Source: Desulfobacterales bacterium
GTDB lineage: Bacteria > Desulfobacterota > Desulfobacteria > Desulfobacterales > UBA5852
Length of the DNA stretch: 64,000 nucleotides
Assembly (NCBI GenBank): GCA_963674755.2
Contig: CAXXVS010000003.1
Location: 2,432,001-2,496,000, forward strand
Reading direction: 5' to 3'
In this document: positions 43,141 to 62,421 of the stretch, piece by piece
How the letters are laid out: each line of letters starts with the position of its first letter
Position numbering within the stretch: position 1 is the first letter of the stretch
Made by a program: the position numbers and the translations under genes
The notes under the pieces: model-generated
What the model was told of the DNA's origin: nothing
The model's input: only the letters and a program-made list of their open reading frames with translations
Database searches by the model: none

Positions 43141-43202
43141 GGGGTCAATTCTGCCCATGACCCAATTAAATTTCAAGATGAGTCATGAGCAGATTTGACC
43201 CC
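43141..43202 (+). repeat. REP-like hairpin, copy 1 of 8
   Basis: GGGGTCAATTCTGCCCATGACCCA-ATTAAATTTCAAGA-TGAGTCATGAGCAGATTTGACCCC. Confidence 0.9.
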
Positions 43203-43288
43203 AAGAATTTAGCGGGTCATCATAACTCTCTGGCAAGCATGTAACTCAAAGTATTTATAGTATATTTTATTCCTCCCTAATATGTAAA

Positions 43289-43318
43289 AAGGGCTTCGGA
43301 ATAATTGCCGAAGCCCTT
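43289..43318. terminator. Terminator-like hairpin
   Basis: AAGGGCTTCGG-N8-CCGAAGCCCTT with a flanking A-tract. Confidence 0.5.
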
Positions 43319-43627
43319 ATATAGTCGTTTGACAAAATTTCCCGAAGCCCCAGGGGTTTCGGAATCTTGCTATCTGGAATGGTAATGTAATGGTGCTGTC
43401 TCAAGACACTGGGGGGGGACCGCCTCGAATGATTTCTGTGTTAAGGATGGATAAAACCGGCAAATCTGTCAAAACGGTTTGGAATTTTGGACGATAGTGG
43501 CCGTCGGAGATGGTTTTATGATGGGTTGTACTTTACAGGTGAAAATTTTTAGAGTTAAATACTTAATAGTATTGCGGTGTTAAAAGTAGAATATCCACAT
43601 AATAATTAATATACTCCCCAAATAAAG

Positions 43628-44686
43628 ATGAAATTCAAATTTACCAAGGATTGGAAGCATTTTGAGAGAGTCGTTGCTGCGATTCATTCTGCTGAAATGG
43701 CTGGTGCAAATGTATTGTTAAATGAAAAAATAAAGGGGCGAGAGTTCGATGTTTCAATTCGTTTTAAAAATGGCCCTCACAGTTACTTAACACTAATCGA
43801 ATGCAAAAAGTATAGCAACCCAATACCGGTAGAGAAAGTTGAAGCCTTCATTACTAAAAGTTCAGATGCAGGGGCAAACAAATCAATTATGTTTTCGAGC
43901 AGCGGCTTTCAATCTGGAGCAATTACTGCTGCAACTCGACACGGCATTGATCTTTATACAGTATATGGAAAAATTAAAATACCTGATGAAATAAAAGCAG
44001 GTGGGGAAACTGAGGCACTTAATGTTCGTGATATCATTTTCACCATAGGCGGTTCCGATTATCATTTTCCTTTGGAAGATGGTAAAATGGAATATCACGC
44101 TAAAAAATCATTTCTAACACATGGCGCAGAAAAAGTTACGGTAAATGAATTTCTTGAAGCTCGAAGTCACGAGTTATTTAAACTAAGCTCCGACACCGAA
44201 AAAGAAAAAGTTTATAATCAACCACCAGGAGTAAGATTAACAGCTCCAAATATGATTGAAAATGGTGAGGTTCAGAAAATAACGATATGCTACAAGAAGA
44301 TGAAATTAGTAAACTTAAAACCTGGAACACCTGTAATGGACCACCATTTATTTGAAAAAATGGTTACTTATTACTGTATGAAAAATGAAGTTACAGGTGA
44401 AGAATCAACAATTATGGCATTAAGTGTTCACCTTGGGTTCGACACAAAAATCCAAAAGGGTAAATTCTACAGCAATCCAAATCTTGGAAATAGTTATTAC
44501 ATTGAAAGCATTAAAGATGGCATTGCTAAAATCTACCTATTGGAGAGCTATAGTATGGGAAATTTGGTACAAGCAGTTTATATGCAAAGCATTAAATATC
44601 AGTATCAATTTGTTTTGATTTCAGATCTTCGTGAGGTTTCTCGGTTATCGAAACTATATTCGAAAATGAAAGAGAAGGAAAGGTGA
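43628..44686 (+). CDS. Mrr-like (type IV) restriction endonuclease domain protein
   Basis: WKHFERVV...REFDV...IECKKY...VEAF...SSSGFQSGA N-terminal domain; no cognate methyltransferase nearby. Confidence 0.8.
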   Translation: MKFKFTKDWKHFERVVAAIHSAEMAGANVLLNEKIKGREFDVSIRFKNGPHSYLTLIECKKYSNPIPVEKVEAFITKSSDAGANKSIMFSSSGFQSGAITAATRHGIDLYTVYGKIKIPDEIKAGGETEALNVRDIIFTIGGSDYHFPLEDGKMEYHAKKSFLTHGAEKVTVNEFLEARSHELFKLSSDTEKEKVYNQPPGVRLTAPNMIENGEVQKITICYKKMKLVNLKPGTPVMDHHLFEKMVTYYCMKNEVTGEESTIMALSVHLGFDTKIQKGKFYSNPNLGNSYYIESIKDGIAKIYLLESYSMGNLVQAVYMQSIKYQYQFVLISDLREVSRLSKLYSKMKEKER

Positions 44687-44834
44687 TCAAGGCGCTGCTG
44701 CTAATTCTAACTTCCCACTGGTTCTCGGGGGGTAACCGAGTCAGACCAATTCAACTAATAGATATCACATATGATACGCTCTTAAATCGCCCTAAAATGC
44801 CCCTATAACCGCATTTTTGACATCAGGAAATATT

Positions 44835-44896
44835 GGGGTCAAGTCTGCCCATGACCCAATTAAATTTCAAGATGAGTCATGAGCAGACATGACCCC
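44835..44896 (+). repeat. REP-like hairpin, copy 2
   Basis: Same 62-bp palindrome. Confidence 0.9.
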
Positions 44897-44986
44897 AAGA
44901 AGGACATTTCCTGATAGACCTTTCGGTGAATAAGAGGCATAAAATAGAGGAGTTATTGGAAAAGATCGATGAATTTGAATTGATGG

Positions 44987-45047
44987 TTATAGAACATTTT
45001 GTGTTCTATATTCCGCAATTGTAATGTTCTATAATACTATGTTAGCT
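44987..45047 (+). other. attI-like site, copy 2
   Basis: TTATAGAACA...GTTCTATA...GTTCTATAATACTAT-GTTAGCT; core complementary to AGCTAAC at 45784. Confidence 0.65.
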
Positions 45048-45063
45048 TCTGGACTTGATTCGT

Positions 45064-45789
45064 ATGAAATCTTCTAAAATATCATCATTTTCAGGTTTTG
45101 AACGAATTCTCGAAAGAGAGAGTCATGCTTATATGTGGAGAGGTGTTTCAAAAAAAGAATATAAACTTATTCCTAAAGTTGCGAGAGATTGGCATTTAGG
45201 GCCTGAATTATTAAAATTGGCTGAAAAACAGCTTCTTGATCATTTTAGAATCCGTGCCACTCCTTTTTGCCAATTTATTCCGCAAACAGATTGGGAGTGG
45301 CTTGCATTAGCACAACATCATGGTCTCCCCACTAGACTTATAGATTGGACATGCAATCCACTTGTTGCTCTTTATTTTGCGTGCCGTGAAAAATCACAAA
45401 ACGATGGCGTAGTCTATTTTGCAAAATGTATAAATGAAATAGACACTAAGGTCATTTTATCACCTTTTGATATTAAGGATGAAAGAAAGTGGAGCGCTCA
45501 ACATTTTAACAATAGGCTTTCTTCGCAAAATGCTCTTTTTACTCTTTCCGAAAATCCCACAGTTCCTTTTAACAACGGAATATTTCATCGCGCCATAATC
45601 AAAGGTTCTTCAAAAAGTGATATTCTTTCTAAGTTGAAGCAGTTTGGCATTCATCAAGGTACAATATTTCCTGGTTTTGAAGGTGTTGCTAAGTATGTCG
45701 AAGAAGAATTTTTCTTTTTTAAGGGAATGGATAAAGACAAGGCATTAAAGGCACTTGAAGAAAGCCTTGAAAATGACAAAAAAAGCTAA
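45064..45789 (+). CDS. Cassette: FRG domain protein
   Basis: MWRG, LAQHHGLPTRLIDWTCNPLVALYFA, RLSSQNALFT. Confidence 0.88.
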   Translation: MKSSKISSFSGFERILERESHAYMWRGVSKKEYKLIPKVARDWHLGPELLKLAEKQLLDHFRIRATPFCQFIPQTDWEWLALAQHHGLPTRLIDWTCNPLVALYFACREKSQNDGVVYFAKCINEIDTKVILSPFDIKDERKWSAQHFNNRLSSQNALFTLSENPTVPFNNGIFHRAIIKGSSKSDILSKLKQFGIHQGTIFPGFEGVAKYVEEEFFFFKGMDKDKALKALEESLENDKKS

Positions 45790-45855
45790 CCCCTTTCTTC
45801 ACCTGACCGGTGTTCCGCTGCGCTTCACACCGGCCAGGTGAGAAATACGTTAGAT
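45784..45855 (+). other. attC site
   Basis: AGCTAAC...TTCTTCACCTGACCGGTGT/ACACCGGCCAGGTGAGAA...GTTAGAT, 72 bp. Confidence 0.9.
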
Positions 45856-46082: not shown

Positions 46083-46144
46083 GGGGTCAAGTCTGCCCAT
46101 GACCCAATTAAATTTCAAGATGAGTCATGCGCAGACTTGACCCC
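46083..46144 (+). repeat. REP-like hairpin, copy 3
   Basis: Same 62-bp palindrome. Confidence 0.9.
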
Positions 46145-46218: not shown

Positions 46219-46310
46219 AGCTAACAAAAGCATAAACGCGAGCGTTTTTCGCCGTTTCGTTCGCTTCGCGTTCTACACTTTGAAAAACAACGGTTATGCT
46301 GGTGTTAGTT
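46219..46310 (+). other. attC site whose gene is lost
   Basis: AGCTAAC-AAA-AGCATAAAC...GGTTATGCT-GGT-GTTAGTT, 92 bp. Confidence 0.8.
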
Positions 46311-46334
46311 TTCCAAATACATTGTGAGGAGATA

Positions 46335-47240
46335 ATGAAAATCATTATCAGACTTGCTATTTTGGAATTTTTACTATTTTCACTACTGTGTGCTTCTTCA
46401 ACAGTCGCTTGTACAATAATTTCAGCCAGTAATAGTAGAACGGTTCTCTTTGCAGGGAACCAAGACTGGTTTCCTGCTGAATCATATTTGGTTGTGGATA
46501 AAACAGGTAAATTTGGTGTAGTTTTTTTTGCCCACCCTGCTAAGTCATACGAACTAGTAATGATGAAGGGAATAAACGAAAAAGGATTAAGCTATGATTT
46601 TAACTGGATTCCGGCAGAAAAACTTATACCTCACCCTGAAAGATCTCCCCAATTTGAATGGGCATTAATCACACACATGAGGGATTCGTGTACAGTAGAC
46701 GAGATACTAAAAAAGCTATTAACATATAATTTTGGGAATTCAATAGACTATCAAATCCATTTTATCGATAAAGATGGAAATGCCGTAGTGTTATATCCTG
46801 GCATAAATGGTGAGTTGGCATATACACGGAAGCCTAAAGGAAATGGTTATTTAATTACAACTAATTTCAATCACGCAAGACGGGAGAAAACATCATGGTC
46901 GCCTTTGGATTATGTCTACTCATTTTTATTTGATGGAAAATATGAAACAGCTGATAATATGCTTTCAAACTTTATAGATCAGGATGATTTAACAGTTGAA
47001 AATATGGCATCAGTTTTAGATGCGACTCATCGCGACTCTTTGTTTGACACACGCTTCTCCATAAAAACGCTTTTTTCAACTGTAGTTGATCTTAAAAACA
47101 TGCAAATTTCACTATATTACAAACGCCAATTCGACAAACCTATTGTATTGGATATAAAACAAGAATTGGATAAAATTGATACCTATAAAAAAGTTTCTTT
47201 AGAAGAGGTGGTGTCAAAAGTAAGTAAAGAAAAAGAATAA
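46335..47240 (+). CDS. Cassette: secreted Ntn-hydrolase (choloylglycine hydrolase / C45 peptidase-like)
   Basis: GAGGAG RBS; signal peptide then CTII...AGNQDW, GINEKGL, TNF. Confidence 0.8.
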   Translation: MKIIIRLAILEFLLFSLLCASSTVACTIISASNSRTVLFAGNQDWFPAESYLVVDKTGKFGVVFFAHPAKSYELVMMKGINEKGLSYDFNWIPAEKLIPHPERSPQFEWALITHMRDSCTVDEILKKLLTYNFGNSIDYQIHFIDKDGNAVVLYPGINGELAYTRKPKGNGYLITTNFNHARREKTSWSPLDYVYSFLFDGKYETADNMLSNFIDQDDLTVENMASVLDATHRDSLFDTRFSIKTLFSTVVDLKNMQISLYYKRQFDKPIVLDIKQELDKIDTYKKVSLEEVVSKVSKEKE

Positions 47241-47273
47241 TAATTTTTAATTCAAAAGTATAGCAACATCAAA

Positions 47274-47353
47274 AACAAACCCGGCGTTCAACATCGCTCC
47301 TACGTCGCTTGGACGTGGCAAACAGGGCCTCGCTAGTTAACTCTATGTTAGAA
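47274..47353 (+). other. attC site with degenerate R''
   Basis: AACAAAC (AACTAAC expected)...GTTAGAA. Confidence 0.6.
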
Positions 47354-47413
47354 AGAGGGTAAGACAGCCTGTAAACAAAGGAACTGAAAATTAATTCTTA
47401 TAAAAACAATTCG

Positions 47414-49030
47414 TTGGTTGGCTTTGTCTTGCTGTGTTTAATCTTTGGATCGCATCAAGATTCTCTGATAGGCAGCCTGCGAGCAGAAAATCGTAATACA
47501 GCAGTTCCAAGTGTCGAGATTAAACCGGACAGTGTTCTGGGAGATGAAGAGGTGGTCATCAAGCTTTCCGGATTTAACCCCGATCAAGAAGTTACAGTAA
47601 AAGCGCAAGCCGGCAACTGGCGGTCCAAAGCTATATTTAAGGCCGATTCTTTGGGAAACGTGGATCTTTCAAAACAAGCCCCTATATCAGGGACTTATAG
47701 AGGGATTGATGGAATGGGGCTCATCTGGTCTTTAAAAAGAACAGATGAAAAAACTGTAGACCGGAAGCAAAAACCTTATAATGGTGACGTTTATAAGCTG
47801 CCGATTATCAGACTGGAAAAAAATTCCCGAGTTGCCAAAGCCGGGTTAAAGGAAAATGATGTGCTGGTTGCTATGGATGGGAAGCCAATCCAAAACCAGA
47901 AAGAATTGTTTAACAGGATCCAAAATCATCTTGAATCGGCTTTGAAATCCCAACAAGACGTAACCTTCAATATTAAGATCGAGCGAAATGGTCACCCCCT
48001 AACTTTGCCAATTATTGTTCATAAGGAAGACCTTTCAAAACGATGGTACAAGGGTGTCATACTAGGTTCAAGGTTAATAAGAATCTTCTTAATTGAGGCG
48101 GAAGTTGAAGGTAAGGTCGTGGCTTCCACGATCTTTAAACAATACGATGTCGCCGCGGATGTAACAGAATTAGCGGTACGAGAGAATGGCCTGGTCGGAT
48201 CATTGTTCAAACCTGGTTCACCAGGCCCTCATCCAGGTATCATCGTACTTGGAGGCGCTAGTGGCGGAATAATTTCGGCCTCATATGATGCAAAGATGTT
48301 GGCCTCTCACGGCTATGCGGCGCTGGCACTGGCCTATTTTGCCTATGAGGATTTGCCACCCCGACTGATAAATATTCCGTTGGAATATTTTGGAGATGCG
48401 ATTCAATGGATGGAAAACCACCCTGCTGTCACATCGAATAAAATTGGTGTATTAGGCAGATCCAAGGGAGGAGAATTAGCTCTCTTGCTTGGGGCCACCT
48501 TTCCGAAACTAAAAGCGGTCGTTGCTTATGTCCCCAGCCACGTTGTTTGGGGGGGTGGGAGGAATAAGAGTTCATGGACAATAAACGGTAAACCATTAGA
48601 CTTTGTTCCTCTCAGGCATATAGTGAAGTTGTATGAACATCCGCCCATAAGATTTACCCCCATGTTTTTACTTAGTCTTCAAAATACTTCTGCTGTGGAG
48701 AAAGCAGTAATTCCTGTGGAAAGAATTAATGGACCGGTGCTTTTAATTTCAGGAGAAGATGATCAAGCGTGGCCATCCACACTCATGTCAGAAATGGTGA
48801 TGAAAAGACTGTCCAGATTTAAACATCCTTTTCCATATCAACATTTGAGTTACGAAGGAGCGGGGCATATCATCATAAATCCATATTATCCGACAACGAT
48901 ACTACATGGCATCCATCCTATTTTTAAGTTTGATATTGCTTATGGCGGGAATCCTCAAGACAATGCGTTTGCTTGTAAAGATTCATGGCCCAAAGTATTA
49001 CAATTTTTAAAAAAGAGCTTTACTCCTTAG
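47414..49030 (+). CDS. Cassette: acyl-CoA thioesterase/BAAT-family alpha/beta hydrolase with inserted PDZ-like domain
   Basis: BAAT N-domain (GTYRGIDGMGLIWSL), PDZ-like SRVAKAGLKENDVLVAMDG, GRSKGGEL, DDQAWPS, GAGH; possible CTG start at 47384 after AAAGGA. Confidence 0.8.
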   Translation: MVGFVLLCLIFGSHQDSLIGSLRAENRNTAVPSVEIKPDSVLGDEEVVIKLSGFNPDQEVTVKAQAGNWRSKAIFKADSLGNVDLSKQAPISGTYRGIDGMGLIWSLKRTDEKTVDRKQKPYNGDVYKLPIIRLEKNSRVAKAGLKENDVLVAMDGKPIQNQKELFNRIQNHLESALKSQQDVTFNIKIERNGHPLTLPIIVHKEDLSKRWYKGVILGSRLIRIFLIEAEVEGKVVASTIFKQYDVAADVTELAVRENGLVGSLFKPGSPGPHPGIIVLGGASGGIISASYDAKMLASHGYAALALAYFAYEDLPPRLINIPLEYFGDAIQWMENHPAVTSNKIGVLGRSKGGELALLLGATFPKLKAVVAYVPSHVVWGGGRNKSSWTINGKPLDFVPLRHIVKLYEHPPIRFTPMFLLSLQNTSAVEKAVIPVERINGPVLLISGEDDQAWPSTLMSEMVMKRLSRFKHPFPYQHLSYEGAGHIIINPYYPTTILHGIHPIFKFDIAYGGNPQDNAFACKDSWPKVLQFLKKSFTP

Positions 49031-49135
49031 CAAAGTTATTTTGACCGTCAACCTGAAATAGGAGTTTATTTGGCTTCTAAATAAGGAGGCATGATACCTC
49101 AATAAAACAAGTCTCATTTCCCTTGATATTAATCT

Positions 49136-49257
49136 TTCTAACAAACACATCGAGGCGGACGGCAATAGCGTGCGGTGGTTTCTAAATTAATGGTTTTTGG
49201 TAAGCTCGTTGTTTCTTCAACTTCTGTCGAAGCCGCCGCTCATGTTCGGCGTTATGT
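49136..49257 (+). other. attC site (long)
   Basis: TTCTAAC (complement of GTTAGAA)...ACATCGAGGCGGACGGC/GCCGCCGCTCATGT...GTTATGT, 122 bp. Confidence 0.85.
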
Positions 49258-49271
49258 GAGTGAACGAAAAT

Positions 49272-49865
49272 ATGAATATAGCTGAATTTTTAAAAAGCGG
49301 CGAGGAACCATTTCCAAATTCAGATTATGGTGATGGTTATAGATGTAGTGCAAATCTAAATGATGGCACATTTTTACCCTGTGTGATGATTAGAAAAAGT
49401 AAAAACTATGTCGATTTAGCCTGTCGCCGTTTTGAAGAAGAGAAGAAAGGTCAAGGTGTTTTTCGTAACAAGAAAAGTGCTTATAGAGATATTGTAAAAT
49501 CATTTGTTACTGGTGGGAACCTTGTAAATGATTACGACATAAAATCTGTAGAAAAGAGCCGTTTTGCTATACCTTTATCTTTATTAAAAAAGATTGAGGG
49601 TGAAACTGCAATGGGTTGGGCAGGTTTTGTACTTGAAATGAATGATGGGAAACTATTTTCATTTGGGACATCTTTTCATGTAGAGTTTTTTGATTTGCCA
49701 GATGGATATTCATTTGAGGATGTAAAGGCAGTTCACAATCACCCCTGTGTAGGAAAATCAGGTAAATTACTATCGATGAAACGCGGTAATAGTGAATTAA
49801 ATAATAATTATGCCCCTGACAGAGTATATCGAGAACGACCGTATTTTGTATGTTATATAGACTAA
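49272..49865 (+). CDS. Cassette: hypothetical protein
   Basis: ORF fills the span between GTTATGTGA and TCACATAAC. Confidence 0.7.
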   Translation: MNIAEFLKSGEEPFPNSDYGDGYRCSANLNDGTFLPCVMIRKSKNYVDLACRRFEEEKKGQGVFRNKKSAYRDIVKSFVTGGNLVNDYDIKSVEKSRFAIPLSLLKKIEGETAMGWAGFVLEMNDGKLFSFGTSFHVEFFDLPDGYSFEDVKAVHNHPCVGKSGKLLSMKRGNSELNNNYAPDRVYRERPYFVCYID

Positions 49866-49868
49866 ATC

Positions 49869-49930
49869 ACATAACAAAGGCATTGTTAGCGACGGCAAAC
49901 AGCCGCCGCGCCACATGCCGGGCGTTCTAT
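49869..49930 (+). other. attC site
   Basis: ACATAAC-AAA-GGCATTG...CATGCC-GGGC-GTTCTAT, 62 bp. Confidence 0.8.
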
Positions 49931-50138
49931 AGGAATCTGGTAGGCAAATTTGGATAATCAAATCCTTTACAAATACAGGCCATATAATTGTCGGTCTTTA
50001 TCTATACTCAAAAATAGGGAGTTCTATTTTTCTGATCCAAAACACTTCAATGATCCTGTTGACTGCCAAGTCGGAATTTATAGTGCATTAAAATCGGCCG
50101 TTGAACTCGCACAAAAGGAAGATTCGACCGTAAAAGAT

Positions 50139-52028
50139 GATGGCCGCGTAAAAAATCAGGCGGCCAATTTGTAGCTTTCTGGATATCTTCCCGACGAATT
50201 TGTCCAAGCGAAGGCAAATTCCACCAGAGCGGCCTGTAAACGTTCTTTGACACGATAAACAGCAGTCGTAATACGGTGATCAAGGCCCGGATTACCCTCT
50301 GCGGCCTTCATTCTGGCCCTGCGAACCCGGGCCGCCCGTAGCAGATTGAGCCCGGTGGCCTTCATTTTGGCACAGAAGCGCACCGCCGGCATGCCCCGAA
50401 CCCGTAGCTTTTTGACCCCGGTGCGCCGATCATATTCGCTCATGGTGGCCTCCACACCGGCCCGCCAGCGATAGGTGTCAATGAAAGCCTCGCTTTTCTC
50501 GGCCTTGCGACGCACCGATAGGCGATATTGCTTTCCGCTGTAGCGCAGATAGTTCTTCTTTTTCCCAGGCTTGACCGGGCAATGACCCGCATGCGGACAT
50601 CCCTGGCAAAGCGTGGAATCGAAGGCCGCGCTGTAACAATCGGTTTTCTTCTTGTGCTTCACCTGCTCGGGAACGTGACCCGCCGGACAGGTCTCGACAT
50701 AGCCCTTGTCATTAAAGCTAAACGCCGTGAGCGGCTTGGACTCATTGCCCTTCTGGGTCGGGGCGACAAGGTCGACATCGGCCACTTGGGCCGTCTGGTG
50801 GTTACTGTCACTGCCGTACAAAGTGTCGGCGACCAACTGATCGGGCCCCACACCCCGGATCTTGGTATCGGCGATGGCCGGCACCACGGCCTCCGCATCG
50901 CTCTCGCAGGCGGGTTGAACTTCGACATGGGTAATCAGGTTAAGCGCCTGCTCTTTTTCATTGGCCTCTTCACTGCGGCTGAAGCTCTCCATGATCTGGA
51001 CCTGATAGCCCTGGCCCTTGTGGCCGCTGTAGGTGGCCTCCGGGTCCGAAGGGTTTTGCAATGAGTCGGAGGGGATCTCGGCCGGCTTCTTTATCGTTAC
51101 TTGGGGGGCACCGGCGGCATCGGTCTCGACATGGCATTGATCGGCGAGCACCCGCTGCATGAGCTTGTAGCTGTGCATGAAAGCCACCGCCGTTTGGTCC
51201 TTGAAGCCCTCGATCAGATCGAACAGATCATTGCTGACCCGTTTTAACGTCTTTTCCGATTCCGTGGGTTTAACCAGAGAAAAGGCGGATAGGGCCTTCT
51301 CACCCCAGTAACGATCAATCACATCAGAAGCGATCGTATCGAACAGCTCTCGGTGGTGGCGTTTGAGATTGACCAGGAACTTGGCGATCGTGCGGCTGAA
51401 AATGGCAATACGGCCCAGCCGGCGCATGTTGGAGCGGATGTGTACCGAGTCGATGCGCTGGTTGGAAGGATCTACACCGAACACTTTGGCCAATTTGTCG
51501 GTGAGCTTTTCGAACATGACCCCGTCAATGCCATTTTCGGCCATCAGCTGGCGGGTCGACCACAGGGTCTTTTCGCTGACGTATTTGGCCTCGTCGCTTT
51601 CTTCAGTGATGTCCAGAGCATAATGCCACTGGAGGTTGTAGGCCAGCTGCTCGACGGCCTCGACATCGTTTAAATCCATGGTTTGCTGGAAAAGCATCAC
51701 TCCCAGCAGGGTATGCAGTTCCTTGGTGGGCCGCCCTATGGCTTCAGTGAAGAAGGGTTTTAACAGATCGACGGGAAGTTCTCCGAGCAGATGCTGGCGG
51801 AACAACCCGGGCCAGCCCTCTTCGAGCATCCGGCGCCGTTTGGGGCTCAAATAGGCCCACGGGTCGAAGAGATGTTGCTGTTTGTGGTCTTTGATGCGAA
51901 GCATGCGATCTCCAGGATAACCATCTGTAATTGTTTGGTTTCCTGTAGCATGACGAGAAGAAAATGGCAAGCTGAAATTGGGCGTTTTGTTAAATAATTC
52001 AGGCGGATAGACTTTTTACGATGCCATC
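50139..52028 (-). mobile_element. Insertion sequence, IS1182-like
   Basis: TIR GATGGCCGCGTAAAAA / TTTTTACGATGCCATC; 6-bp target duplication AAAGAT at 50133-50138 and 52029-52034. Confidence 0.9.
50156..51904 (-). CDS. DDE transposase (IS1182-like)
   Basis: RIDSVH, YSGHKGQGYQVQ, VADTLYG, CPAG...C..CP..C zinc ribbon, YRWRAGVEATMS. Confidence 0.88.
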   Translation of the reverse strand: MLRIKDHKQQHLFDPWAYLSPKRRRMLEEGWPGLFRQHLLGELPVDLLKPFFTEAIGRPTKELHTLLGVMLFQQTMDLNDVEAVEQLAYNLQWHYALDITEESDEAKYVSEKTLWSTRQLMAENGIDGVMFEKLTDKLAKVFGVDPSNQRIDSVHIRSNMRRLGRIAIFSRTIAKFLVNLKRHHRELFDTIASDVIDRYWGEKALSAFSLVKPTESEKTLKRVSNDLFDLIEGFKDQTAVAFMHSYKLMQRVLADQCHVETDAAGAPQVTIKKPAEIPSDSLQNPSDPEATYSGHKGQGYQVQIMESFSRSEEANEKEQALNLITHVEVQPACESDAEAVVPAIADTKIRGVGPDQLVADTLYGSDSNHQTAQVADVDLVAPTQKGNESKPLTAFSFNDKGYVETCPAGHVPEQVKHKKKTDCYSAAFDSTLCQGCPHAGHCPVKPGKKKNYLRYSGKQYRLSVRRKAEKSEAFIDTYRWRAGVEATMSEYDRRTGVKKLRVRGMPAVRFCAKMKATGLNLLRAARVRRARMKAAEGNPGLDHRITTAVYRVKERLQAALVEFAFAWTNSSGRYPESYKLAA

Positions 52029-52599
52029 AAAGATAAGCTTCAGAAGTTAGGAAAGTTAGAAGATATATATGCCAAGATTGAAAATGACGTTAAACGATCA
52101 GCTGTATTCTCCCTCTCAAAAGAGGAAAATAATGTATTAATGTGGTCGCACTACACAGAGAGTCATACTGGTTTTTCATTAGGTTTTACTTTGTCCAAAT
52201 CATTTACCGAATATAATGAATCAAAAGCAATTATTGGTAAAAACGACGTCCACTATTCTGAAGATAATCCGTTTGTTGATTATTTTATTGAATTTGCAAA
52301 ATGTACTCAGCTACCTGAATGGAATGAATTCTGGGTATCGCTATTGTCAATGGGGTTAGTTGTCAAATCTAAAGCTTGGGAATATGAAAATGAGGTGCGA
52401 ATTATAAGAGGGAAGCCAGGCAAGGTTCAGTTTTCACCTTCTGAACTTAAAGTTGTAATTTTCGGGTTAAATTTGACACCCAAAAAAAGAATGAAGATAC
52501 GAAATATACTATCTGATCATGAATGGAGTCATGTACAAATAAAAGAAGTTATCAGAGAAGATGATGGTTTTAGGTTAAAGGTGGTAAATTGTTAAGGAA

Positions 52600-52659: not shown

Positions 52660-52716
52660 TCCAACAAAGAATGTACAAAAAATCATTTGGGAATAGATAA
52701 CAATAATGGGCGTGAT

Positions 52717-52812: not shown

Positions 52813-53571
52813 ATGAACCGCATACTCAAAAGGTCATCAATCCGCCGATCGACGGATCAGGATCTCGCTCAAGTTCACACATGGCTCATTGAAGAGAATG
52901 AGCAGGGTGTCCATGGCAACTTTCTCTGCAACTGGAGGGTCATAGATAGGGCCCATAAAAATAGAAACCTATTAGTCTATATCGACGGCGCGGTTGGTCA
53001 ACCTGTCGGATTTCAGCTTGGCGGACTCTTAAGCCCCGGCATTCTCCAGGTGCGCAATTCATTCCGAGGGAAAGGCATTGGCCGGAAGCTGGTGGAGCGA
53101 TGCTTCTCGCTCGCAAACAAACGCAACGAACCCTGCCTTTTGATTCAGTGCATCCCTTCCTCATCGATTCTGTTTTGGAAGAAAATGGGATTCACCCTTT
53201 TGGATAAGAACAGGTACGGTGAACATTATGCCTATCGAGTGGTGAACAAGAGCCATAGGCTTCCAGAACAAGGCACCGATATTGACGACGCCATCGCATT
53301 TTATCCAGAGTCAAGGAGATGGGAGGTCAACGAAAAACCATATTCATATTTCTCTCCATCCGCCAGAATCGATTCAGATGGTGTTATACACCTCGGGCAA
53401 CGCGTAATTTTTCATGAAAAGACCTCTCCGAAATACGAGGATGTATTGGTGGGAATGGAAATATCAGGCGAACCTGCTTATCTTGATAAGGCGAAATATC
53501 AGCAGACGCGTGATATGGGCGTAGAGAGGTGCCAAAACGGGTACTATATTGACCTACTTAGGGTTTCCTGA
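52813..53571 (+). CDS. GNAT N-acetyltransferase; last codons replaced by IS5 insertion
   Basis: QVRNSFRGKGIGRKLV, FWKKMGF; IS inserted at 53560. Confidence 0.8.
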   Translation: MNRILKRSSIRRSTDQDLAQVHTWLIEENEQGVHGNFLCNWRVIDRAHKNRNLLVYIDGAVGQPVGFQLGGLLSPGILQVRNSFRGKGIGRKLVERCFSLANKRNEPCLLIQCIPSSSILFWKKMGFTLLDKNRYGEHYAYRVVNKSHRLPEQGTDIDDAIAFYPESRRWEVNEKPYSYFSPSARIDSDGVIHLGQRVIFHEKTSPKYEDVLVGMEISGEPAYLDKAKYQQTRDMGVERCQNGYYIDLLRVS

Positions 53572-55257: not shown

Positions 55258-55396
55258 TACTTAGGGGCCTAATGCGGGGACATATCGTTTAGTTCCGATT
55301 GCTACGCTTGACCAATTCCGCCAACCAATGCAGGCAATGGACACACAGTAAGCGTCGCGCTGCGGCAGGGTGCCGCAGTGGATTTGGGCGCGTAAT

Positions 55397-55497
55397 GGGG
55401 TCAAGTCTGCCCATGACCCAATTAAATTTCAAGATGAGTCATGAGCAGACTTGACCCCAAGAACTGACCCCTGACCCCAAGAACTGACCCCAAGAAC
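55397..55497 (+). repeat. REP-like hairpin, copy 5, with tandem TGACCCC(AAGAAC) reiterations
   Basis: 62-bp palindrome 55397-55458 followed by three more TGACCCC units. Confidence 0.9.
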
Positions 55498-55729
55498 TGC
55501 CTGTTTGGTCAGAGAGCGTTGCTGCTGGCAGTCGGGATTACGTGGAGCAGGACGCCCAGGGGGACGCCCATGAAATTATGCCTTTCTATGGTGTAAGATA
55601 GGGCCGGAAACCGGGTCGGACCAAGTCAACTATTCGATATAAAATGTGATACGCTCTGAAATCACCCCAAAAAGGTCCCGATAACTGCATTTTTGACCTC
55701 GAAATCGGCGTTGCACGAAATCCGTAATC

Positions 55730-55880
55730 ATGGCACGCGCTCATCGGCATTTTATACCCAGGCAGGTTTGGCATCTGACGCACCGATGTCATAAGCGGGA
55801 ATTCTTGCTGGTCGGAGAGCATTGCCGTCGGCAGTCAGGCTTATGTCGCGAGGCTTGGTGAGGTGCTGGGAGGTATGGCC
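55730..55880 (+). pseudogene. Internally deleted Y1/RAYT-like (HUH) transposase
   Basis: MARAHRHFIPRQVWHLTHRCHKREFLL joined out of frame to WSESIAVGSQAYVARL; a second WSESVAAGSRDYVEQ fragment at about 55506-55550. Confidence 0.65.
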
Positions 55881-56057
55881 CACATTCCATTCGGTAGGGT
55901 ATAATAAAGGAATAGGTTCATATGCAAAAAAGGGGTCAAGTCTACATTTGACTGTTACCTCATGATTTGGTGACATTGCAAGGGCGCACCAAAAAACCTT
56001 GTTAAAATTGGATTCCGTGAGGGAACCATCTCAAAGTCAAATGGACATGCTCCATTA

Positions 56058-57449
56058 TCATGAACTTGATCTGACGTCGCAGTTTTCCACGATCCTTTTA
56101 TGGGGTTTGTACATTTCAGTTTTTATTCTGCTGTAGAACTCTTTTCTGAATCCCGGGATTTTGGTCAGAAGCATCACGACGGCGTTGATCAACCTTGATT
56201 TGTAGCGCTTGTGCGGGAAATCAAATGCCCCGTTATTTTTATAGTACCTGTAGTCCGCCTGGAAGACATGGCGCAGCTTGCCCCAGATATCGTCCCGGAA
56301 GATTTTTGAGCCACCGACGCCTAAAAAGGTTTGCGGCTGGCAATAGGCGTTATTTGAAAATGTGATCAAATGCTCAGCCAGTTTTTGGATACTGGCGTCA
56401 ATTTCATCGGAATTGCCGGTCTCATCGCAAACGATACCGGCGAAATTGGCTTGCTGGCATTCAAAGAAACCCTGACAGAAATCGTATAAATACGGCATCT
56501 GGCTCATCCGGCCGGAAACGAGGAAGCCCACCTGTTTGTCTTTCAGATCCGGGACGTGATTCATAAAAAAACGCCGGTCGAAATATTCCTTGAATTTGGA
56601 CGACATGTTTCGTCCGGTCAGTGGCATGGCAAAAATTACGACATCGGCAGGTAGAATCCTGGACCGATAAAAAGAGGAAAAGTCATCTTTGTACATGCAG
56701 CTATTGTCATAGCCGCACTTGATGCATCCGGTACACCCCCCCTGAATATTCATATCTCTCAGATTTACGATGTCGATGGCTTCGGTGTAAGCCTCTGAGA
56801 ATCGCTTGATCATGGCCTGAATGCCCGTATCATGCGGTTTGTGGTCTGTCACCAAAACGATTTTCTTGTTCCCGGCATCCAATTTTCTTGAGACAACGGC
56901 CGGCTCGAAGGCGTAGTTATTTTGTGGGATGGGTTGATATCTTTTCTGATGGTGGAATTTTTGCTCTGAAGATTCAAAATAATTTTCTGCAAACTTGAGC
57001 AGTGTTTCCCTGCCGCGGCTTTTTCTGAGATCATCCATTTCGGCCGAAAAATAACCGATATAGTTCAGTTCAAGATCATCACAGACGGCATGCATATAAC
57101 GGTGCGCGGTATGGTCATAGAAATGGATAGACGTTGTCATGACAATGGTGGACTTGTTTTTGAACGCCTGAGCAACGTTGCGTTCATGGATAAGCTCGAT
57201 GAATCGCATGTATTGGGCCGGCACGAATAGTGTGTATACGGGTGTGGACCATATGATGCTGTCACAGGATTCGATATCGGCCATTATGTCGTTAAAGAGA
57301 TCATCATTCTTTTCGATTTTTTTTATCCGGCTTGAAATGTTGTGAAACAGGTATTCATGGTCGGGATAATGTTTTTGAATAAATTTTACATACTGCATGG
57401 TAACGCTGGGTTCACCCTTGGGGCTTCCATTTAATATGACGATCTTCAT
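56058..57449 (-). CDS. NAD(P)H-dependent FMN reductase / iron-sulfur flavoprotein with two flavodoxin-like domains
   Basis: ILNGSPK, TPVY in domain 1; CTGCIKC.....C motif in domain 2. Confidence 0.82.
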   Translation of the reverse strand: MKIVILNGSPKGEPSVTMQYVKFIQKHYPDHEYLFHNISSRIKKIEKNDDLFNDIMADIESCDSIIWSTPVYTLFVPAQYMRFIELIHERNVAQAFKNKSTIVMTTSIHFYDHTAHRYMHAVCDDLELNYIGYFSAEMDDLRKSRGRETLLKFAENYFESSEQKFHHQKRYQPIPQNNYAFEPAVVSRKLDAGNKKIVLVTDHKPHDTGIQAMIKRFSEAYTEAIDIVNLRDMNIQGGCTGCIKCGYDNSCMYKDDFSSFYRSRILPADVVIFAMPLTGRNMSSKFKEYFDRRFFMNHVPDLKDKQVGFLVSGRMSQMPYLYDFCQGFFECQQANFAGIVCDETGNSDEIDASIQKLAEHLITFSNNAYCQPQTFLGVGGSKIFRDDIWGKLRHVFQADYRYYKNNGAFDFPHKRYKSRLINAVVMLLTKIPGFRKEFYSRIKTEMYKPHKRIVENCDVRSSS

Positions 57450-57478
57450 AGCGGCCTCCTGTGATAGGCGTTTTTAAA

Positions 57479-57526
57479 GTTGACCCCGTCAACATTGTGT
57501 ATAGGGCATGAAATTGACAGTGTCAA
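57479..57526. promoter_or_regulatory. Two palindromic operators, probable TetR sites
   Basis: GTTGAC-CCC-GTCAAC (57479-57493) and TTGAC-AGT-GTCAA (57514-57526) between divergent genes. Confidence 0.7.
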
Positions 57527-57591
57527 CATTAAATGTTAATCAATGACCAAAAAAGTGAAGATGGCGCGTCTGATTAACCGGGGGGGCAACA

Positions 57592-58251
57592 TTGGCAACC
57601 AAGAAAAGCTACCACCATGGCGATTTACGCAAAAAACTGCTGGCCACCGCCCTTGAAATTATATCTGAACATGGACTTGAAAAAGTGTCCATGCGGGGGC
57701 TTGGGCACCGCATAGGGGTGTCGAGAACCGCACCCTACCGGCACTTTGCCGATAAAAGCGCGCTGTTATGTGCCATCGCGGAACAGGGGCATCAAAAATT
57801 GACAGCAGTGCTGAAAAAAGCCAACCAGCAGCTTTCCGATGATCCGCTGACAAGACTTACCAATACCGGCATTGGCTATGTCGAATTCGCTGTTGCCAAC
57901 CCGGTCCATTACAGGATCATGTTCGGTAATGAGATCCTGGAAAATAAACGAACCTCCGAACTCGTCAACGCCGCTGAAACGTCATTTAATGAATTGCTCT
58001 ATGCAGTCAAGGCCTGTCAGGAAGAAAAGCTTATCAAACCAATCAACCCCTATATTATAGCCAACACACTGTGGTCATTGACGCATGGCATATCCATGCT
58101 TTTGATCGATGGACAGATTCAGTCGGCCAATGCGTTCCGAGGGATGCCGGCAATGCTTCAACCGGGTATTGAAGCAGGCAAGATCGATGTGCGAAAGATC
58201 TTTGAATATAAGAGTGATATTTTATTCACAGGTCTTATGGCAGATTCCTGA
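57592..58251 (+). CDS. TetR/AcrR family regulator (WHG-type C-terminus)
   Basis: YHHGDLR, GVSRTAPYRHF HTH, WSLTHG. Confidence 0.9.
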   Translation: MATKKSYHHGDLRKKLLATALEIISEHGLEKVSMRGLGHRIGVSRTAPYRHFADKSALLCAIAEQGHQKLTAVLKKANQQLSDDPLTRLTNTGIGYVEFAVANPVHYRIMFGNEILENKRTSELVNAAETSFNELLYAVKACQEEKLIKPINPYIIANTLWSLTHGISMLLIDGQIQSANAFRGMPAMLQPGIEAGKIDVRKIFEYKSDILFTGLMADS

Positions 58252-58366
58252 TGGCGCAATAATAATGGGGGCAAGTCTGCGATAGCTTCCCATATGAAAA
58301 CCTATAAATTGAAAAGAGAAGACGACACCCCATTTTTTTGTGATCGAAAAAATTGGGCATAAGATT

Positions 58367-58498
58367 GATGGAACCGTAAAAAGTCGAATTTCCTGTTTAA
58401 TCGTCATTCCGGCGAAAGCCGGAATCTTTTGATATCAGTGAGTTATAGATTTCGGATCAAGTCCGGAATGACAGATAGAAGACTTTTTACGAAACCAC
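58367..58498. mobile_element. MITE-like element with IS1182-like ends and internal GTCATTCCGG palindrome
   Basis: GATGGAACCGTAAAAAGTC / GACTTTTTACGAAACC ends; GTCATTCCGGCGAAAGCCGGAATC...TCCGGAATGAC interior. Confidence 0.65.
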
Positions 58499-58622: not shown

Positions 58623-58684
58623 GGGGTCAAGTCTGCCCATGACCCAATTAAATTTCAAGATGAGTCATGAGCAGACTTGACCCC
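58623..58684 (+). repeat. REP-like hairpin, copy 6
   Basis: Same 62-bp palindrome. Confidence 0.9.
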
Positions 58685-58694
58685 AAGAATCTCT

Positions 58695-58999
58695 GGCGTG
58701 GCGTTTTACAAGCAGGCCGATTTATGGTAGCCAAACTGTATACATCCCTTGCAGTTCAGCCGGCCTGTTATCCCGCATATTCGGGTGCGCTTCCTGCGCA
58801 CTTCTTCGAAATATACACGATGCAGCTTATAGAACATCGCTGCTGTTCTATAACACCGTTTCAAAATAGCCTATTTGGTGGATAAGAGAAATAAAACAGA
58901 GGGTTTATTGGAAAAGGATCATAAAGATAAATTGATGGTTATAGAACATTTTACGTTCTATAAGCCGCAATCGGAATGTTCTATAATACTATGTTATAT
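58695..58999 (+). other. attI-like module, copy 3 (longest version)
   Basis: 58695-58853 repeats 38823-38980; 58874-58999 resembles 44922-45047; ends GTTCTATAATACTAT-GTTATAT. Confidence 0.65.
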
Positions 59000-59018
59000 G
59001 AAAAAATAAGGGAGTAAT

Positions 59019-59075
59019 GGGGTCAAGTCTGCCCATGACCCAATTACAAGGTGAGTCATGAGCAGACTTGACCCC
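59019..59075 (+). repeat. REP-like hairpin, copy 7 (short-loop variant)
   Basis: Same arms, loop ATTACAAGG. Confidence 0.9.
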
Positions 59076-59561: not shown

Positions 59562-61340
59562 ATGTCGATCGCCAATTTTCCTGCAGAGCAGCCGATGTTC
59601 TCCTACGTCTTCATGAAAATCCTGGAAAACCGTGCGAACCGGTATGACCGCGGAATCGATGTCGCAAGTGGGGGGCACGCCAGCAAGATCAGAAAGTTCA
59701 TTGTGGCGCATTACGTCCGGAATGGCATTGCGATGCTGGACATCGGCTGCGGGACCGGCACCCTGGCGGTGGAAGCCGCGTTGGCGGGTGCGACGGTCGC
59801 CGGCATCGACATCTCCCGAGGAATGCTGGCGATCGCACGGCAAAAGGTCGCGCGCCGATCCCTGGAGGGAAGGGTCGCTCTCTACGAAGCGGGGGTCGTC
59901 GAGATAGACACGCTCTTCAAGACCGGTGACTTCGACCTGGTCACGTCCACGCTCGTCATGAGCGAGCTTTACCCGGCTGAACGGCGCTGGGCGCTCAAGC
60001 AAGTCCACGCGCTTCTGAAACCCGGCGGGATCCTCGTCATCGCGGCCGAGGTTTTGCCCAAGAACACCCTCAAACGTTTCCTGTATCGGCTTGTCCGCGC
60101 ACCGTTGTCGATTTTAACCTACCTGATCGCCCAAACCGGAACCAAACCGGTGGCCGGTCTCGATGCGGCGCTGACAGGGGCGGATTTCGATATCCTCGAA
60201 AGACGCTTCTCCTTCCTGGACAGCTTCACGGTGGTCGTCGCAAGAAAAGGCCGTAACCGCACGGCCGCGGCGCAGGATTTCAAAGCGCTCACGCCGGCGG
60301 GGGACATTTCCAGATTGAAGACCATTTGGGATTTCGGCGGCAGGTGGTTTCCCTGCCCGGTGGAACCAGGGCTGCGAATCATCGGCAAGCCCAACAGGGA
60401 TTCCCCGGTGCTGGTGACTGGGAATTTTCATCTGACCGTAAGGCGCGTGGAAAAATCGCTCGCCGGATTGTCGTGCTACCTGCTGGTGGCACCCACAGGC
60501 GGCATCAACGTATGGTGCGGTTCCGTCGGCGGCGAAATGACGGCGCATTCCGTCATCTCCGCGGTCACGACGAGCGGCATTGCCGGCATGGTCGCTCACC
60601 GGCGGATCATCCTGCCCCAGTTGTGTGCCCCCGGCGTCGACGTGACGTCCGTGCACGCCCAAACCGGTTGGCACGTCGTTTTTGGCCCTGTGTATTCCGA
60701 AGACATCCCGGCTTTCCTGGAAACGGGAAACCGGCACGCGCCAAATGCCGCCGCCCGGTTTTCCCTGCCCTTCCGTCTGGAAATGCTATTCTCCATGAAT
60801 TTCCTCGTCTGGCTGGCAGCAGCGCTCGCGTTCTTGGTGTTCAACAGTACCACCGCCCTCTACTTTTCCGCCGTATTCTGGGGGTCCGCTTTGCTGCTCT
60901 ACGCAGCCTACCCGCTGATCCCGGGGAGAAGCGGTTGGATCAAGTCACTGCTGATGGCCGTGGTTGTGTCCGCCGTCATCTTTCTCGGCCGGGCACACGT
61001 CTCGCATTGTGCCGGATGGATTGTTGTGACGGTTTTCGTCAACCTCTGGCTGGGTTTCGACCTGCGCGGCATTGTCAGTGGAGACACTTCGGAAGCGGTG
61101 CTGCTGCTCAACAAACTGCACATCGGCTCTTTCGGGAAATTGCACAAAGCCAGCTCAAAAGAATCGCTGTCGGTACGTTTGGATTACGACCGCTGCACGG
61201 TTTGCGGGCTGTGCGTCCGCCTGTGTCCAGCGAACGCCTTGAGCGAAAAGGATCGCCGCATCACACTGGAACAACCGAAGTGCATGAAATGCGGGGCTTG
61301 CGTGAAACAGTGTCCCGTCGACGCTTTGCGATTCGAATGA
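59562..61340 (+). CDS. Fusion: SAM-dependent methyltransferase + HgcA/CdhD-like corrinoid domain + TM region + 2x[4Fe-4S] ferredoxin
   Basis: LDIGCGTG; EPGLRIIGKP..DSPVLVTGNF.LT, GINVWCG, ILPQLCAPG, FGPV; about 4 TM helices; CTVCGLCVRLCP and CMKCGACVKQCP; start may be 59595. Confidence 0.85.
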   Translation: MSIANFPAEQPMFSYVFMKILENRANRYDRGIDVASGGHASKIRKFIVAHYVRNGIAMLDIGCGTGTLAVEAALAGATVAGIDISRGMLAIARQKVARRSLEGRVALYEAGVVEIDTLFKTGDFDLVTSTLVMSELYPAERRWALKQVHALLKPGGILVIAAEVLPKNTLKRFLYRLVRAPLSILTYLIAQTGTKPVAGLDAALTGADFDILERRFSFLDSFTVVVARKGRNRTAAAQDFKALTPAGDISRLKTIWDFGGRWFPCPVEPGLRIIGKPNRDSPVLVTGNFHLTVRRVEKSLAGLSCYLLVAPTGGINVWCGSVGGEMTAHSVISAVTTSGIAGMVAHRRIILPQLCAPGVDVTSVHAQTGWHVVFGPVYSEDIPAFLETGNRHAPNAAARFSLPFRLEMLFSMNFLVWLAAALAFLVFNSTTALYFSAVFWGSALLLYAAYPLIPGRSGWIKSLLMAVVVSAVIFLGRAHVSHCAGWIVVTVFVNLWLGFDLRGIVSGDTSEAVLLLNKLHIGSFGKLHKASSKESLSVRLDYDRCTVCGLCVRLCPANALSEKDRRITLEQPKCMKCGACVKQCPVDALRFE

Positions 61341-61361
61341 AGGGCAATAAACCGGACAGGA

Positions 61362-62267
61362 ATGAAAATGAACCTAAAACAAGAAACGCGTCGACCGCAA
61401 AACCTTCACATCATACCACGCAAGATGGATTTTGACTTTGCCGCGTCATTAAGGAACAGTTGTTATTGGAATGATAATAATGCGGTATCAGCGCATTTTA
61501 TCAATGCCCTTCAGGACACCTTCCCCGAAGGAGAACGCTTTTTTATGGATGCCGCCCGCCAAGCTGCCAAAATTCTGCACCAAAAAGGATTGTTGGATCA
61601 AGAGCTTGAACAGGATCTGCAGGCCTTTTCCATGCAGGAGGCCTCACATGGCTGGCTCCATCATAAATGGTCGCAGGCATTGATTGAAAGCGGATATGCC
61701 AGGTTAGCCGACTATGGCGATCAGCTTCACAGGGCGCACCTCTGGCTAAACCGGTATTTGCCTGTCAAAATGCGTCTTTCGATTACAAGTGCGGCCGAAC
61801 ATTACACCGCTTCAATCGCCTATATGCTGGTGCATATCAAACCCGAGTTGATTACGCAGTCCACCTCCCCCTTTAAAGATATGTTGCTCTATCACGCCAT
61901 GGAAGAACTTGAGCATAAAAGTGTTTGTTTTGATTTGTATCAGAAGTTATCGGGAAATTATCTCTTACGGCTGTTTGGTCTATTGTTCATCACCGTTGAT
62001 CTTTCAACACTGGTTTTTATGCGCTATCACTATTTAATGCAAAAAGACGGACTTTGGGATGTGAGACACCGGAAGTTGGCATGGCACTTTCTTTTCGGCC
62101 CTAACGGGTTGATTAAATCGATGTGGCCGAGAATCAAAAGTTATATGAAACGTTCTTTTCATCCCTGGCAAACCGATGATCGCCATGAAATGGAATCCGC
62201 TTTTGGTGATTTTATCAGAACATTAGAAATCGTGCCTTTCGAATATTCGTCAGGGCCTCCTGAATAA
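61362..62267 (+). CDS. Predicted metal-dependent hydrolase (ferritin-like ExxH motifs)
   Basis: FPEGERFF, QEASHGWLH, AEHYTA, HAMEELEHKSVCFD. Confidence 0.82.
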   Translation: MKMNLKQETRRPQNLHIIPRKMDFDFAASLRNSCYWNDNNAVSAHFINALQDTFPEGERFFMDAARQAAKILHQKGLLDQELEQDLQAFSMQEASHGWLHHKWSQALIESGYARLADYGDQLHRAHLWLNRYLPVKMRLSITSAAEHYTASIAYMLVHIKPELITQSTSPFKDMLLYHAMEELEHKSVCFDLYQKLSGNYLLRLFGLLFITVDLSTLVFMRYHYLMQKDGLWDVRHRKLAWHFLFGPNGLIKSMWPRIKSYMKRSFHPWQTDDRHEMESAFGDFIRTLEIVPFEYSSGPPE

Positions 62268-62332
62268 TCAATTTCGCTTCGCAGGTCGGCTATTTTCAGC
62301 CCTTTCATGGATGTCAGGGGTAAACGCGTAAT

Positions 62333-62421
62333 GGGGCCAAGTCTGCCCATGACCCAATTACAAGGTGAGTCATGAGCGGACTTGACCCCAAGAATCCTGA
62401 GCAGACTTGACCCCAAGAATC
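62333..62421 (+). repeat. REP-like hairpin, copy 8 (short loop) with duplicated right arm
   Basis: Palindrome 62333-62389 followed by TGAGCAGACTTGACCCCAAGAATCC. Confidence 0.88.

Follow-up and report, generated by a model that had tools for sequence, protein, structure and literature searches.

TIRtron-type hairpins at the seams of an integron-cassette island in a Desulfobacterales genome

How an island of broken integron-cassette pieces came to be studded with co-oriented hairpins is the question raised by a 64,000-nt stretch of a Desulfobacterales genome (GenBank assembly GCA_963674755.2, contig CAXXVS010000003.1, positions 2,432,001 to 2,496,000 of the forward strand), referred to here as the window. 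The original prediction, made from the letters alone, described eight repetitive extragenic palindrome (REP)-like hairpins that divide the island into self-contained cargo units, attributed them to a Y1 transposase of the RAYT type, and proposed that they are the junctions of a module-accretion system independent of the integron integrase, IntI. In the present analysis, the hairpins are identified as doublets of terminal inverted repeats (TIRs) derived from a TIRtron, an element that encodes a TIRYT transposase. They have probably spread by local hops that replace the target and by co-oriented copying, with occasional one-ended capture, the island being mostly trimmed and rearranged.

The hairpins and their parent element

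Sixteen matches to the hairpin arm occur in the window, against none expected from 100 shuffles, and form eight hairpins (Table 1), six of 62 bp and two of 57 bp with a shorter loop. The asymmetric loop has one orientation in all eight, and an arm-match scan found no copy at positions 1-43140; number, starts, orientation and absence from the first 43 kb agree with the original prediction, as do the spacings to attC sites. Folded as the bottom strand, the hairpin forms a 24-bp stem (-23.7 kcal/mol, z -9.9). Its flanks are mostly TAAT and AAG, and the AAGAA tail described earlier is the right flank of seven of the eight window copies. A TAAT+G junction recurs at 12 of the 17 copies in the genome; the ATG at 59017, previously cited as placing a hairpin exactly at a ribosome-binding site and start codon, arises from this usual join and carries little weight.

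The probable parent lies on another contig of the same genome (G000; 6.71 Mb in three contigs, C1 to C3). At C1:916347-917379, a gene for a 325-aa protein is bounded by perfect 25-bp TIRs. The protein matches Y1_Tnp (PF01797, E 1e-15), with H60, H62 and Y119 conserved, and carries a C-terminal Bac_DnaA_C domain (PF08299, E 2e-10, over the cut-off). A remnant at C2:1974062-1974234 combines an arm-type TIR, 56 bp of TIRYT interior (96%) and a hairpin. As these sequences show, the hairpin consists of both TIRs of a TIRYT element, left and right, fused after loss of the gene, and is hence a non-autonomous TIRtron. The parent is mobile: relative G005 carries the element over its exact length, from TIR to TIR, at an unrelated site (96.2% identity; neighbouring genes there 67-81% identical). 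G005 also has two full elements that are 99.2% identical, co-oriented and 5.3 kb apart, and in relative G004 the two sides of the G000 element site lie on separate contigs.

TIRtrons with single, dimeric and grouped TIR repeats have been described (Di Nocera 2013, PMC3733652); their transposases correspond to TnpAY1 subclass 2.1.2 (Quentin 2018, PMC6006769) and RAYT group 1 (Bertels 2017, PMC5581495). Group 1, or subclass 2.1, is the largest and most widespread RAYT group (PMC5581495). From domain order and TIRs, the present element is assigned to the TIRtrons of subclass 2.1.2. Its TIR start fits seven of the eight positions of GGGGWSAS, a consensus that holds for most but not all members; the eighth base, published as C or G, is A here and G in TIR family B (family labels A to D were coined in this analysis). 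Free TIR repeats are present as dimers, 17 of them in G000, and as many solos; of 401 genomes from the phylum, 35 have doublets similar to the hairpin, and solo ends are common. The earlier attribution is retained as to the Y1/HUH family and revised as to type: the enzyme is a TIRYT, not a GTAG-type RAYT.

Several other assignments were rejected. The element lacks the GTAG or GTGG foot of REP/REPIN systems with GTAG-type RAYTs, and NF047646 scores 70.8 bits against a cut-off of 80. Membership of IS200/IS605 is contradicted by the TIRs, the 325-aa length and 22 bits for NF033573 (cut-off 55), and membership of ISCR/IS91 by a TIR-bounded Y1 plus helix-turn-helix organization in place of oriIS and terIS without TIRs. 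A classical DDE MITE (miniature transposable element with inverted repeats) was discarded on target-site duplications of 0-2 nt at six full elements. No end-adjacent repeat was found at the 16 own-genome hairpins checked. Seven further long Y1 genes are present in G000 (C1:626392, C1:1285484, C2:1644746, C2:1885907, C3:763739, C3:764779 and C3:1282460), most of them with GGGACG-type inverted ends that also stutter, and C3:1531099-1531144 is a 46-bp perfect doublet of another GGGGTC family.

The 17 genome copies form six clusters of 1, 2, 2, 1, 3 and 8, nine copies lying beyond the window's eight; 16 are whole and one is split by IS200. Eight of 17 within 19.3 kb was reached in none of 100000 random draws, and orientation is uniform within every cluster. 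Clustering, co-orientation and an intact Y1 gene in the same genome, all anticipated by the original prediction, were therefore recovered, and the copies are neither scattered nor randomly oriented. Right flanks share 4.3 bases within clusters against 3.1 between them (permutation p=0.011), and the last two window hairpins (59019 and 62333) have a loop deletion in common; this points to copying of the hairpins in place. Among 13 neighbouring TIR pairs in other genomes (one own-genome pair excluded, three pairs from a single locus, one beside an assembly gap), eight have the same orientation, one the opposite and four are unclear.

All six hairpin loci lie in AT-rich islands, and hairpins occur in 4 of 12 such islands having a stringent attC site versus 2 of 35 that lack one (p=0.03). 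No hairpin was seen in the main array, which carries the intact intI. Hairpin orientation equals cassette direction in all five loci with attC-like sites (C2 by eye), too few for a claim. A replication-strand bias was set aside: five of six loci match GC skew and C2 is opposite, which is not significant. The exact hairpin had no match in metagenome contigs, a collection that possibly leaves out near-identical genomes, and a search of 40 relatives gave partial matches only. Co-oriented D-type Y1 ends surround a cassette-like open reading frame (ORF) at C3:2305821 and 2306643, the same pattern with another TIR family. In genome G010 (contig C23; L311:5609 and 12118), the distance between A/B-type TIRs and D-type ends is 13-25 nt, an arrangement also present in the window; TIRs of different families seem to land beside one another. 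Group II intron-like reverse-transcriptase elements were seen by eye beside attC-like sites in two hairpin clusters (C1:~732400-734421 and C2:1974300-1976490).

Junctions, seams and loss of target DNA

Seven of the 17 hairpins have a left flank that is duplicated elsewhere in G000, and the matches end 3, 5, 5, 5, 9, 10 and 11 nt ahead of the hairpin; among control bins, 178 of 8092 contained an end of this kind. To the right of the hairpin, the match to the other copy is not taken up again in any of the seven. Right flanks give four matches, beginning 8-17 nt past the hairpin. Copy 6 illustrates both sides: on its left, 120 bp are 92.5% identical to C2:2326853, in a piece cut at a start codon and with homology ending 5 nt ahead, and on its right homology to 38823 begins 10 nt past the doublet. 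The hairpins mark seams of cut and rejoined DNA and not clean insertions.

Comparison with G004 gives the same picture on a larger scale. With flanks 93-96% identical, G004 joins the counterpart of window position 38751 to one sibling hairpin. G000 has this same hairpin (63975) and 11-nt linker, and exceeds G004 by 25.2 kb to the left of the hairpin and by about 0.78 kb to the right. At the C2 locus, 0.4 kb in G004 corresponds to 6.2 kb in G000, and synteny returns 14 nt past the last hairpin. Among 16 family genomes, both flanks of the 25.2-kb difference occur only in G004; none of them serves as an outgroup, and the available genomes give gain or loss no polarity. The sibling hairpin (63975-64036) carries an equal T-to-G change in both arms relative to G004, with stem pairing kept.

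Strain joints were taken from contigs of four public sequencing runs (19 joints, 15 of them shown; read depth across runs was not taken as copy number). Four joints end 7-11 nt ahead of a hairpin and bring new left neighbours (three in run X20, one in run X1). In run X1 the methyltransferase gene is skipped, with breakpoints away from any hairpin. The remaining joints fall at insertion sequence (IS) copies or at attC or attI-like repeats, or stem from other copies of this genome type.

Other genera display what happens to the target. A gene that is uninterrupted in genome G367 has lost about 77 nt to a doublet in G316, where a second doublet, with stuttered ends, stands in place of 1.9 kb of G367. 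The first (L017:14622) sits in a 743-codon ORF whose frame stays open. Between G021 and G404, all seven TIRs private to one genome accompany replaced or lost target, with offsets of 5-35 nt; at a TIR that both share, a 1.64-kb segment with a major facilitator superfamily gene differs, with breakpoints 8-10 nt outside. One loss is polarised: a gene that G021 has in full is missing its 3' part in G404, together with a hairpin. A gene-truncating deletion of about 0.7 kb ends 23 nt outside a hairpin end in G404. Clean insertion with target duplication was rejected, no duplication being seen and the target being replaced. Solo TIRs show offsets of 5-10 nt like those of doublets. An orthologous doublet (L032:7893 and L036:7907) has its loop inverted between G404 and G021.

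A further mark is stutter, the repetition of 3-12 nt of flank plus the TIR start, mostly 7 nt, at 49 of 341 distinct outer TIR ends (control, 41 of 6820).

Mechanism, rival explanations and known systems

In the proposed mechanism, the doublet would be mobilised in trans, most likely by a TIRYT such as that at C1:916347-917379. The enzyme is pictured as recognising the folded doublet in single-stranded DNA and nicking a few bases beyond the GGGG ends, not at the ends themselves; the nicking chemistry is borrowed from E. coli TnpAREP, and the junction pattern is observed. If the ends then join the same strand a short way off, new copies would come to lie close by and co-oriented, keeping 3-11 nt of the old flank. 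As the two ends need not meet at one point, the target would be replaced or deleted without duplication, as seen in other genera, and repeated rounds within an integron-cassette island would leave a hairpin array at the seams of broken pieces. Stutter would fit if a cut made outside one TIR were joined to another TIR about 7 nt within it. Sometimes the left end alone may be rejoined, with DNA on the right following and homology resolving the product into segment gain or duplication, a step suggested by two loci described below. The observed base of this scheme, as read from genome comparisons, consists of a mobile TIRtron origin, local co-oriented copying, offset junctions, target loss, absence of duplication, and stutter.

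Several results weigh against it. Hairpin arms and the TIR of the intact element disagree at 2-3 of 24 positions, and left flanks are not cluster-specific (p=0.49). The short side of the strain joints comprises 29-36 letters and may derive from other organisms, and the TIR ends and loci, including those of the 341 ends that come from related contigs, are not independent samples. Between G021 and G404, 19 of 30 synteny gaps lie away from TIRs, and a gap is present in 6 of 12 intergenic regions with a shared TIR and in 13 of 47 that have no TIR, a difference that is not significant (Fisher p=0.17). This test was preferred to a binomial test of 11 of 30 gaps at TIRs, which gave p=2e-7 against all positions and p=0.52 against intergenic positions only. 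Cleavage by any TIRYT was not found in the literature searched. The expectation that breakpoints coincide with hairpins is accordingly upheld in part: several strain and paralogue breaks lie 3-11 nt outside them, but one strain lacks the methyltransferase gene at breakpoints elsewhere, and most of the gaps just mentioned lie away from TIRs.

Two loci indicate that DNA may also be gained. Both share one order: a variable region, a truncated copy of the first conserved gene, the hairpin, other DNA, and the intact gene. At C3:1436299, the fragment covers 897 bp of a gene of B12-binding radical-SAM-like type; it shares 96.7% identity with the intact copy, which lies 10 kb further on, against 85-91% with four relatives (best, 91.0%). 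At C1:730626, the fragment is 98.1% identical to the intact copy, with 3.7 kb of other DNA between, versus 90-95% in relatives (best, 95.3%), and spans a deletion of about 0.77 kb seen only in G000 among four genomes. Deletion alone cannot produce such truncated duplicates; they match the footprint of ISCR1 circles integrating by homology, which suggests occasional gain. Between two attC sites at C1:730234-731412 lie a gene fragment, a hairpin and an ORF, a unit that a circle of hairpin and cargo would leave and that is therefore cited for a capture reading. Here, TIRYT and the doublets would form an ISCR-like system in which the left end is cut and joined hundreds to thousands of bases downstream, and the circle re-enters by homology or, where it carries an attC, through IntI as a new chimeric cassette. 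This reading is considered rather unlikely. If true, hairpins would be the growth points of islands and integron arrays in these bacteria, and TIRYT would offer one way for new cassettes to arise.

That accretion is the main process, with a hairpin heading each foreign segment (through one-ended transfer or as a hairpin-closed circle) and growth module by module as with ISCR1 in complex class 1 integrons, is considered rather unlikely. It would account for the truncated duplicates, closer to their intact copies than any relative is, and for the 25.2 kb and 6.2 kb by which G000 exceeds G004 beside hairpins. In G316, 3.3 kb and three more TIR sites are present where G367 has one hairpin, which accretion would likewise explain. 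Two X20 "go-back" joints run back to the linker left of the nearest hairpin upstream, the result expected of a circle or a tandem duplication, but daughter hairpins explain them equally well. None of the size differences is polarised by an outgroup, either among the 16 family genomes or for the G316 cluster, whose outgroups lack conserved gene order. Moreover, cluster-specific tags on the hairpins fit copying in place, IntI-type cassettes and ordinary IS elements are among the pieces of the mosaic intervals, and the gene-truncating deletion in G404 ends just outside a hairpin. Of the IntI-independent accretion originally proposed, the seams at hairpins are thus kept, while mosaic intervals, in-place copying, replaced targets and one polarised deletion speak against module-wise growth; evidence for gain is confined to the two loci and to strain differences without polarity.

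It is quite improbable that the transposase merely drops hairpins into dispensable AT-rich DNA and that the host makes the seams later, through palindrome cleavage, fork stalling, microhomology repair or recombination between 62-bp direct repeats. Near-perfect 24-bp palindromes are fragile sites, direct repeats permit RecA-type loss of intervals, and the location of all six loci in AT-rich islands fits; the loop inverted between G021 and G404 and the paired arm change of the sibling hairpin in G000 also point to host processing. Host cleavage should, however, break hairpins at the loop; of the 17 copies, 16 are intact, and an IS200 splits the remaining one. Breakpoints bunch 3-11 nt outside the hairpin ends, solo TIRs, unable to fold as doublets, have offsets of 5-10 nt as well, and repeat recombination makes no new left junctions.

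HUH transposons are normally without inverted ends, and an HUH enzyme with TIRs is odd. TIRtrons and TIR dimers are already described (PMC3733652), and the idea that a related enzyme picks up genes has been put forward (PMC3333891). The present element resembles published TIRtrons in its Y1 HUH domain with a Bac_DnaA_C tail, in long TIRs starting GGGGTCA, and in belonging to a moderately abundant family of singles, dimers and clusters in the most IS-like RAYT group; the accessible parts of those accounts contain no target analysis, junction offsets, target loss, stutter, co-orientation, integron link or mechanism. In the openly available literature searched, no account of TIRtron junctions, targets or integron links was found, although the supplements or Figure 9 of PMC3733652 may list related TIRs, and none of the mechanism of TIRYT, a name used by only two of the papers found. 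For E. coli TnpAREP, strand transfer and cleavage at a distance of hundreds of bases from the hairpin are documented (Ton-Hoang 2012, PMC3333891); the same study put forward insertion close to a resident hairpin and the sequestering of flanking genes. REP, BIME and REPIN systems likewise pair a Y1 enzyme with a short, gene-less hairpin (PMC3333891); the present system differs in lacking a GTAG foot, in having true TIRs, in being still mobile with its gene, and in 17 copies in islands as opposed to hundreds in core intergenic space. ISCR1 and IS91 share the HUH enzyme, one-ended pick-up and homology integration that leaves a duplicated flank beside an integron (PMC7707992). Unlike the gene-less TIR doublet, for which capture is suggested by two loci only, ISCR elements have no TIRs, use oriIS and terIS, and carry their transposase. 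Bacterial DDE MITEs are also short, non-coding, TIR-bounded deletion derivatives of an IS-like parent (PMC3733652), whereas the doublet has an HUH partner, makes no target-site duplication, replaces its target and carries flank along.

What the comparisons contribute is a set of candidate junction rules: a cut 3-11 nt outside the GGGG end, an AT-rich join, target loss without target duplication, short-range hopping on the same strand, and stutter ending about 7 nt inside a TIR. The origin of new cassettes is an open question in the integron field. If capture were true, it would mean integrase-independent remodelling of integron islands and a candidate source of such cassettes.

Contents of the island

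The features of the island are collected in Table 1. The intervals between hairpins are mosaics of attC cassettes, an IS1182-like element, IS5, truncated edge pieces and remnants of other TIR families. The cargo names given in the original prediction agree with the profile matches (Mrr_cat, FRG, GNAT, flavodoxin fold, TetR, methyltransferase-HgcAB-like, metal hydrolase and methyl-accepting chemotaxis protein, MCP). Its description of self-contained units does not hold, as the intervals start or end in broken pieces and contain the IS1182-like and IS5 insertions.

Table 1. Coordinates of hairpins and neighbouring features in the window
Feature	Position	Strand	Remarks
Stretch without counterpart at the G004 syntenic site	38752-63963		25.2 kb
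attI-like module, copy 1	38823-39027	+	putative attI; further copies 44907-45050 and 58695-59004
Five-cassette array	39033-43119	+	attC sites 39347, 40138, 40988, 43059
TIR-TIR doublet, family A, copy 1	43141-43202	+	21 nt past attC 43059-43119
Mrr-like nuclease gene (Mrr_cat)	43628-44686	+	no attC seen
D-type Y1 element end remnant	44731-44831	+	others 55606-55793 and, inverted, 62440-62464
Doublet copy 2	44835-44896	+	left, D-type TIR end remnant; homology ends 3 nt ahead
FRG cassette	45055-45855	+	attC 45784-45855
Doublet copy 3	46083-46144	+	left, 5' fragment of DNA-alkylation-repair gene, homology ends 11 nt ahead; 75 nt ahead of orphan attC 46219
Orphan attC, then C45-like, BAAT, unknown and DUF2971 cassettes	46219-52662	+	some attC read by eye
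Doublet copy 4	52717-52778	+	58 nt into cassette downstream of attC ending near 52659
GNAT gene, IS5 at 3' end	52771-55259	+	IS5 at 53559-55259, minus strand
Doublet copy 5	55397-55458	+	stuttered right tail to ~55500
Solo TIR, family C	55932-55956	+	end as in two intact TIRtrons of G005
Flavodoxin-fold gene (minus) and TetR gene (plus)	56058-58251		86-88% identical in G001, G005, G010, in other neighbourhoods
Truncated A-type arm	58267-58280	+	2-6 nt past end of TetR homology with three relatives
Doublet copy 6	58623-58684	+	flanked by homology on both sides
Doublet copy 7	59019-59075	+	57-bp loop variant
Methyltransferase-HgcAB-like fusion and metal-dependent hydrolase	59562-62267	+	profile matches
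Doublet copy 8	62333-62421	+	57-bp variant as copy 7 to 62389, then stuttered tail (62390-62421)
MCP signalling gene	62596-63792	+	profile match
11-nt linker and left arm of sibling doublet, family B	63964-64000	+	common to G004; doublet starts 63975 and extends ~36 nt beyond window end

Further TIR-family ends, not listed in the original prediction, lie within the island at 55932, 58267, 44737, 55612, 62464 and 63975. The DUF2971 cassette is split by the IS1182-like element (50138-52030). Cover of the Mrr-like gene is absent or reduced in runs X20 and X1, bins without cover being no proof of absence. The BAAT cassette (47518-49255) is 97% identical in G001, where it closes an array matching the C1 cluster of G000. 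At 59562-61340, a CpaM-like methyltransferase is fused to an HgcAB-like part in one 592-aa ORF that is over the cut-off in both NCBIfam models. Abundant palindromic repeat families of the genus, distinct from the TIR doublet, are found at 36237-36880 and 58365-58497.

The attC-bounded cassettes agree with a CALIN-like integron array; their attC sites comprise five found by two rule scans, two by match to the main array and three by eye. No intI gene is present in the window. The intact intI on C2 adjoins a different attI, and the window module occurs in 2 of 250 other genomes with its attI core unmatched. An attempt to confirm attI status through a linked intI failed, and the label attI given earlier to these modules reduces to a loose likeness to the genome's attI sites. 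A fourth attI-like module, at 22715-22768, is followed by an AT-rich ORF and has no hairpin near. G000 carries one intact intI (a 445-aa frame, C2:2339256-2340440) and four 3' fragments (C1:181041, C1:721999, C1:756585 and C3:1409422), and arrays in this genome sit past the intI 3' end, in the orientation of intI.

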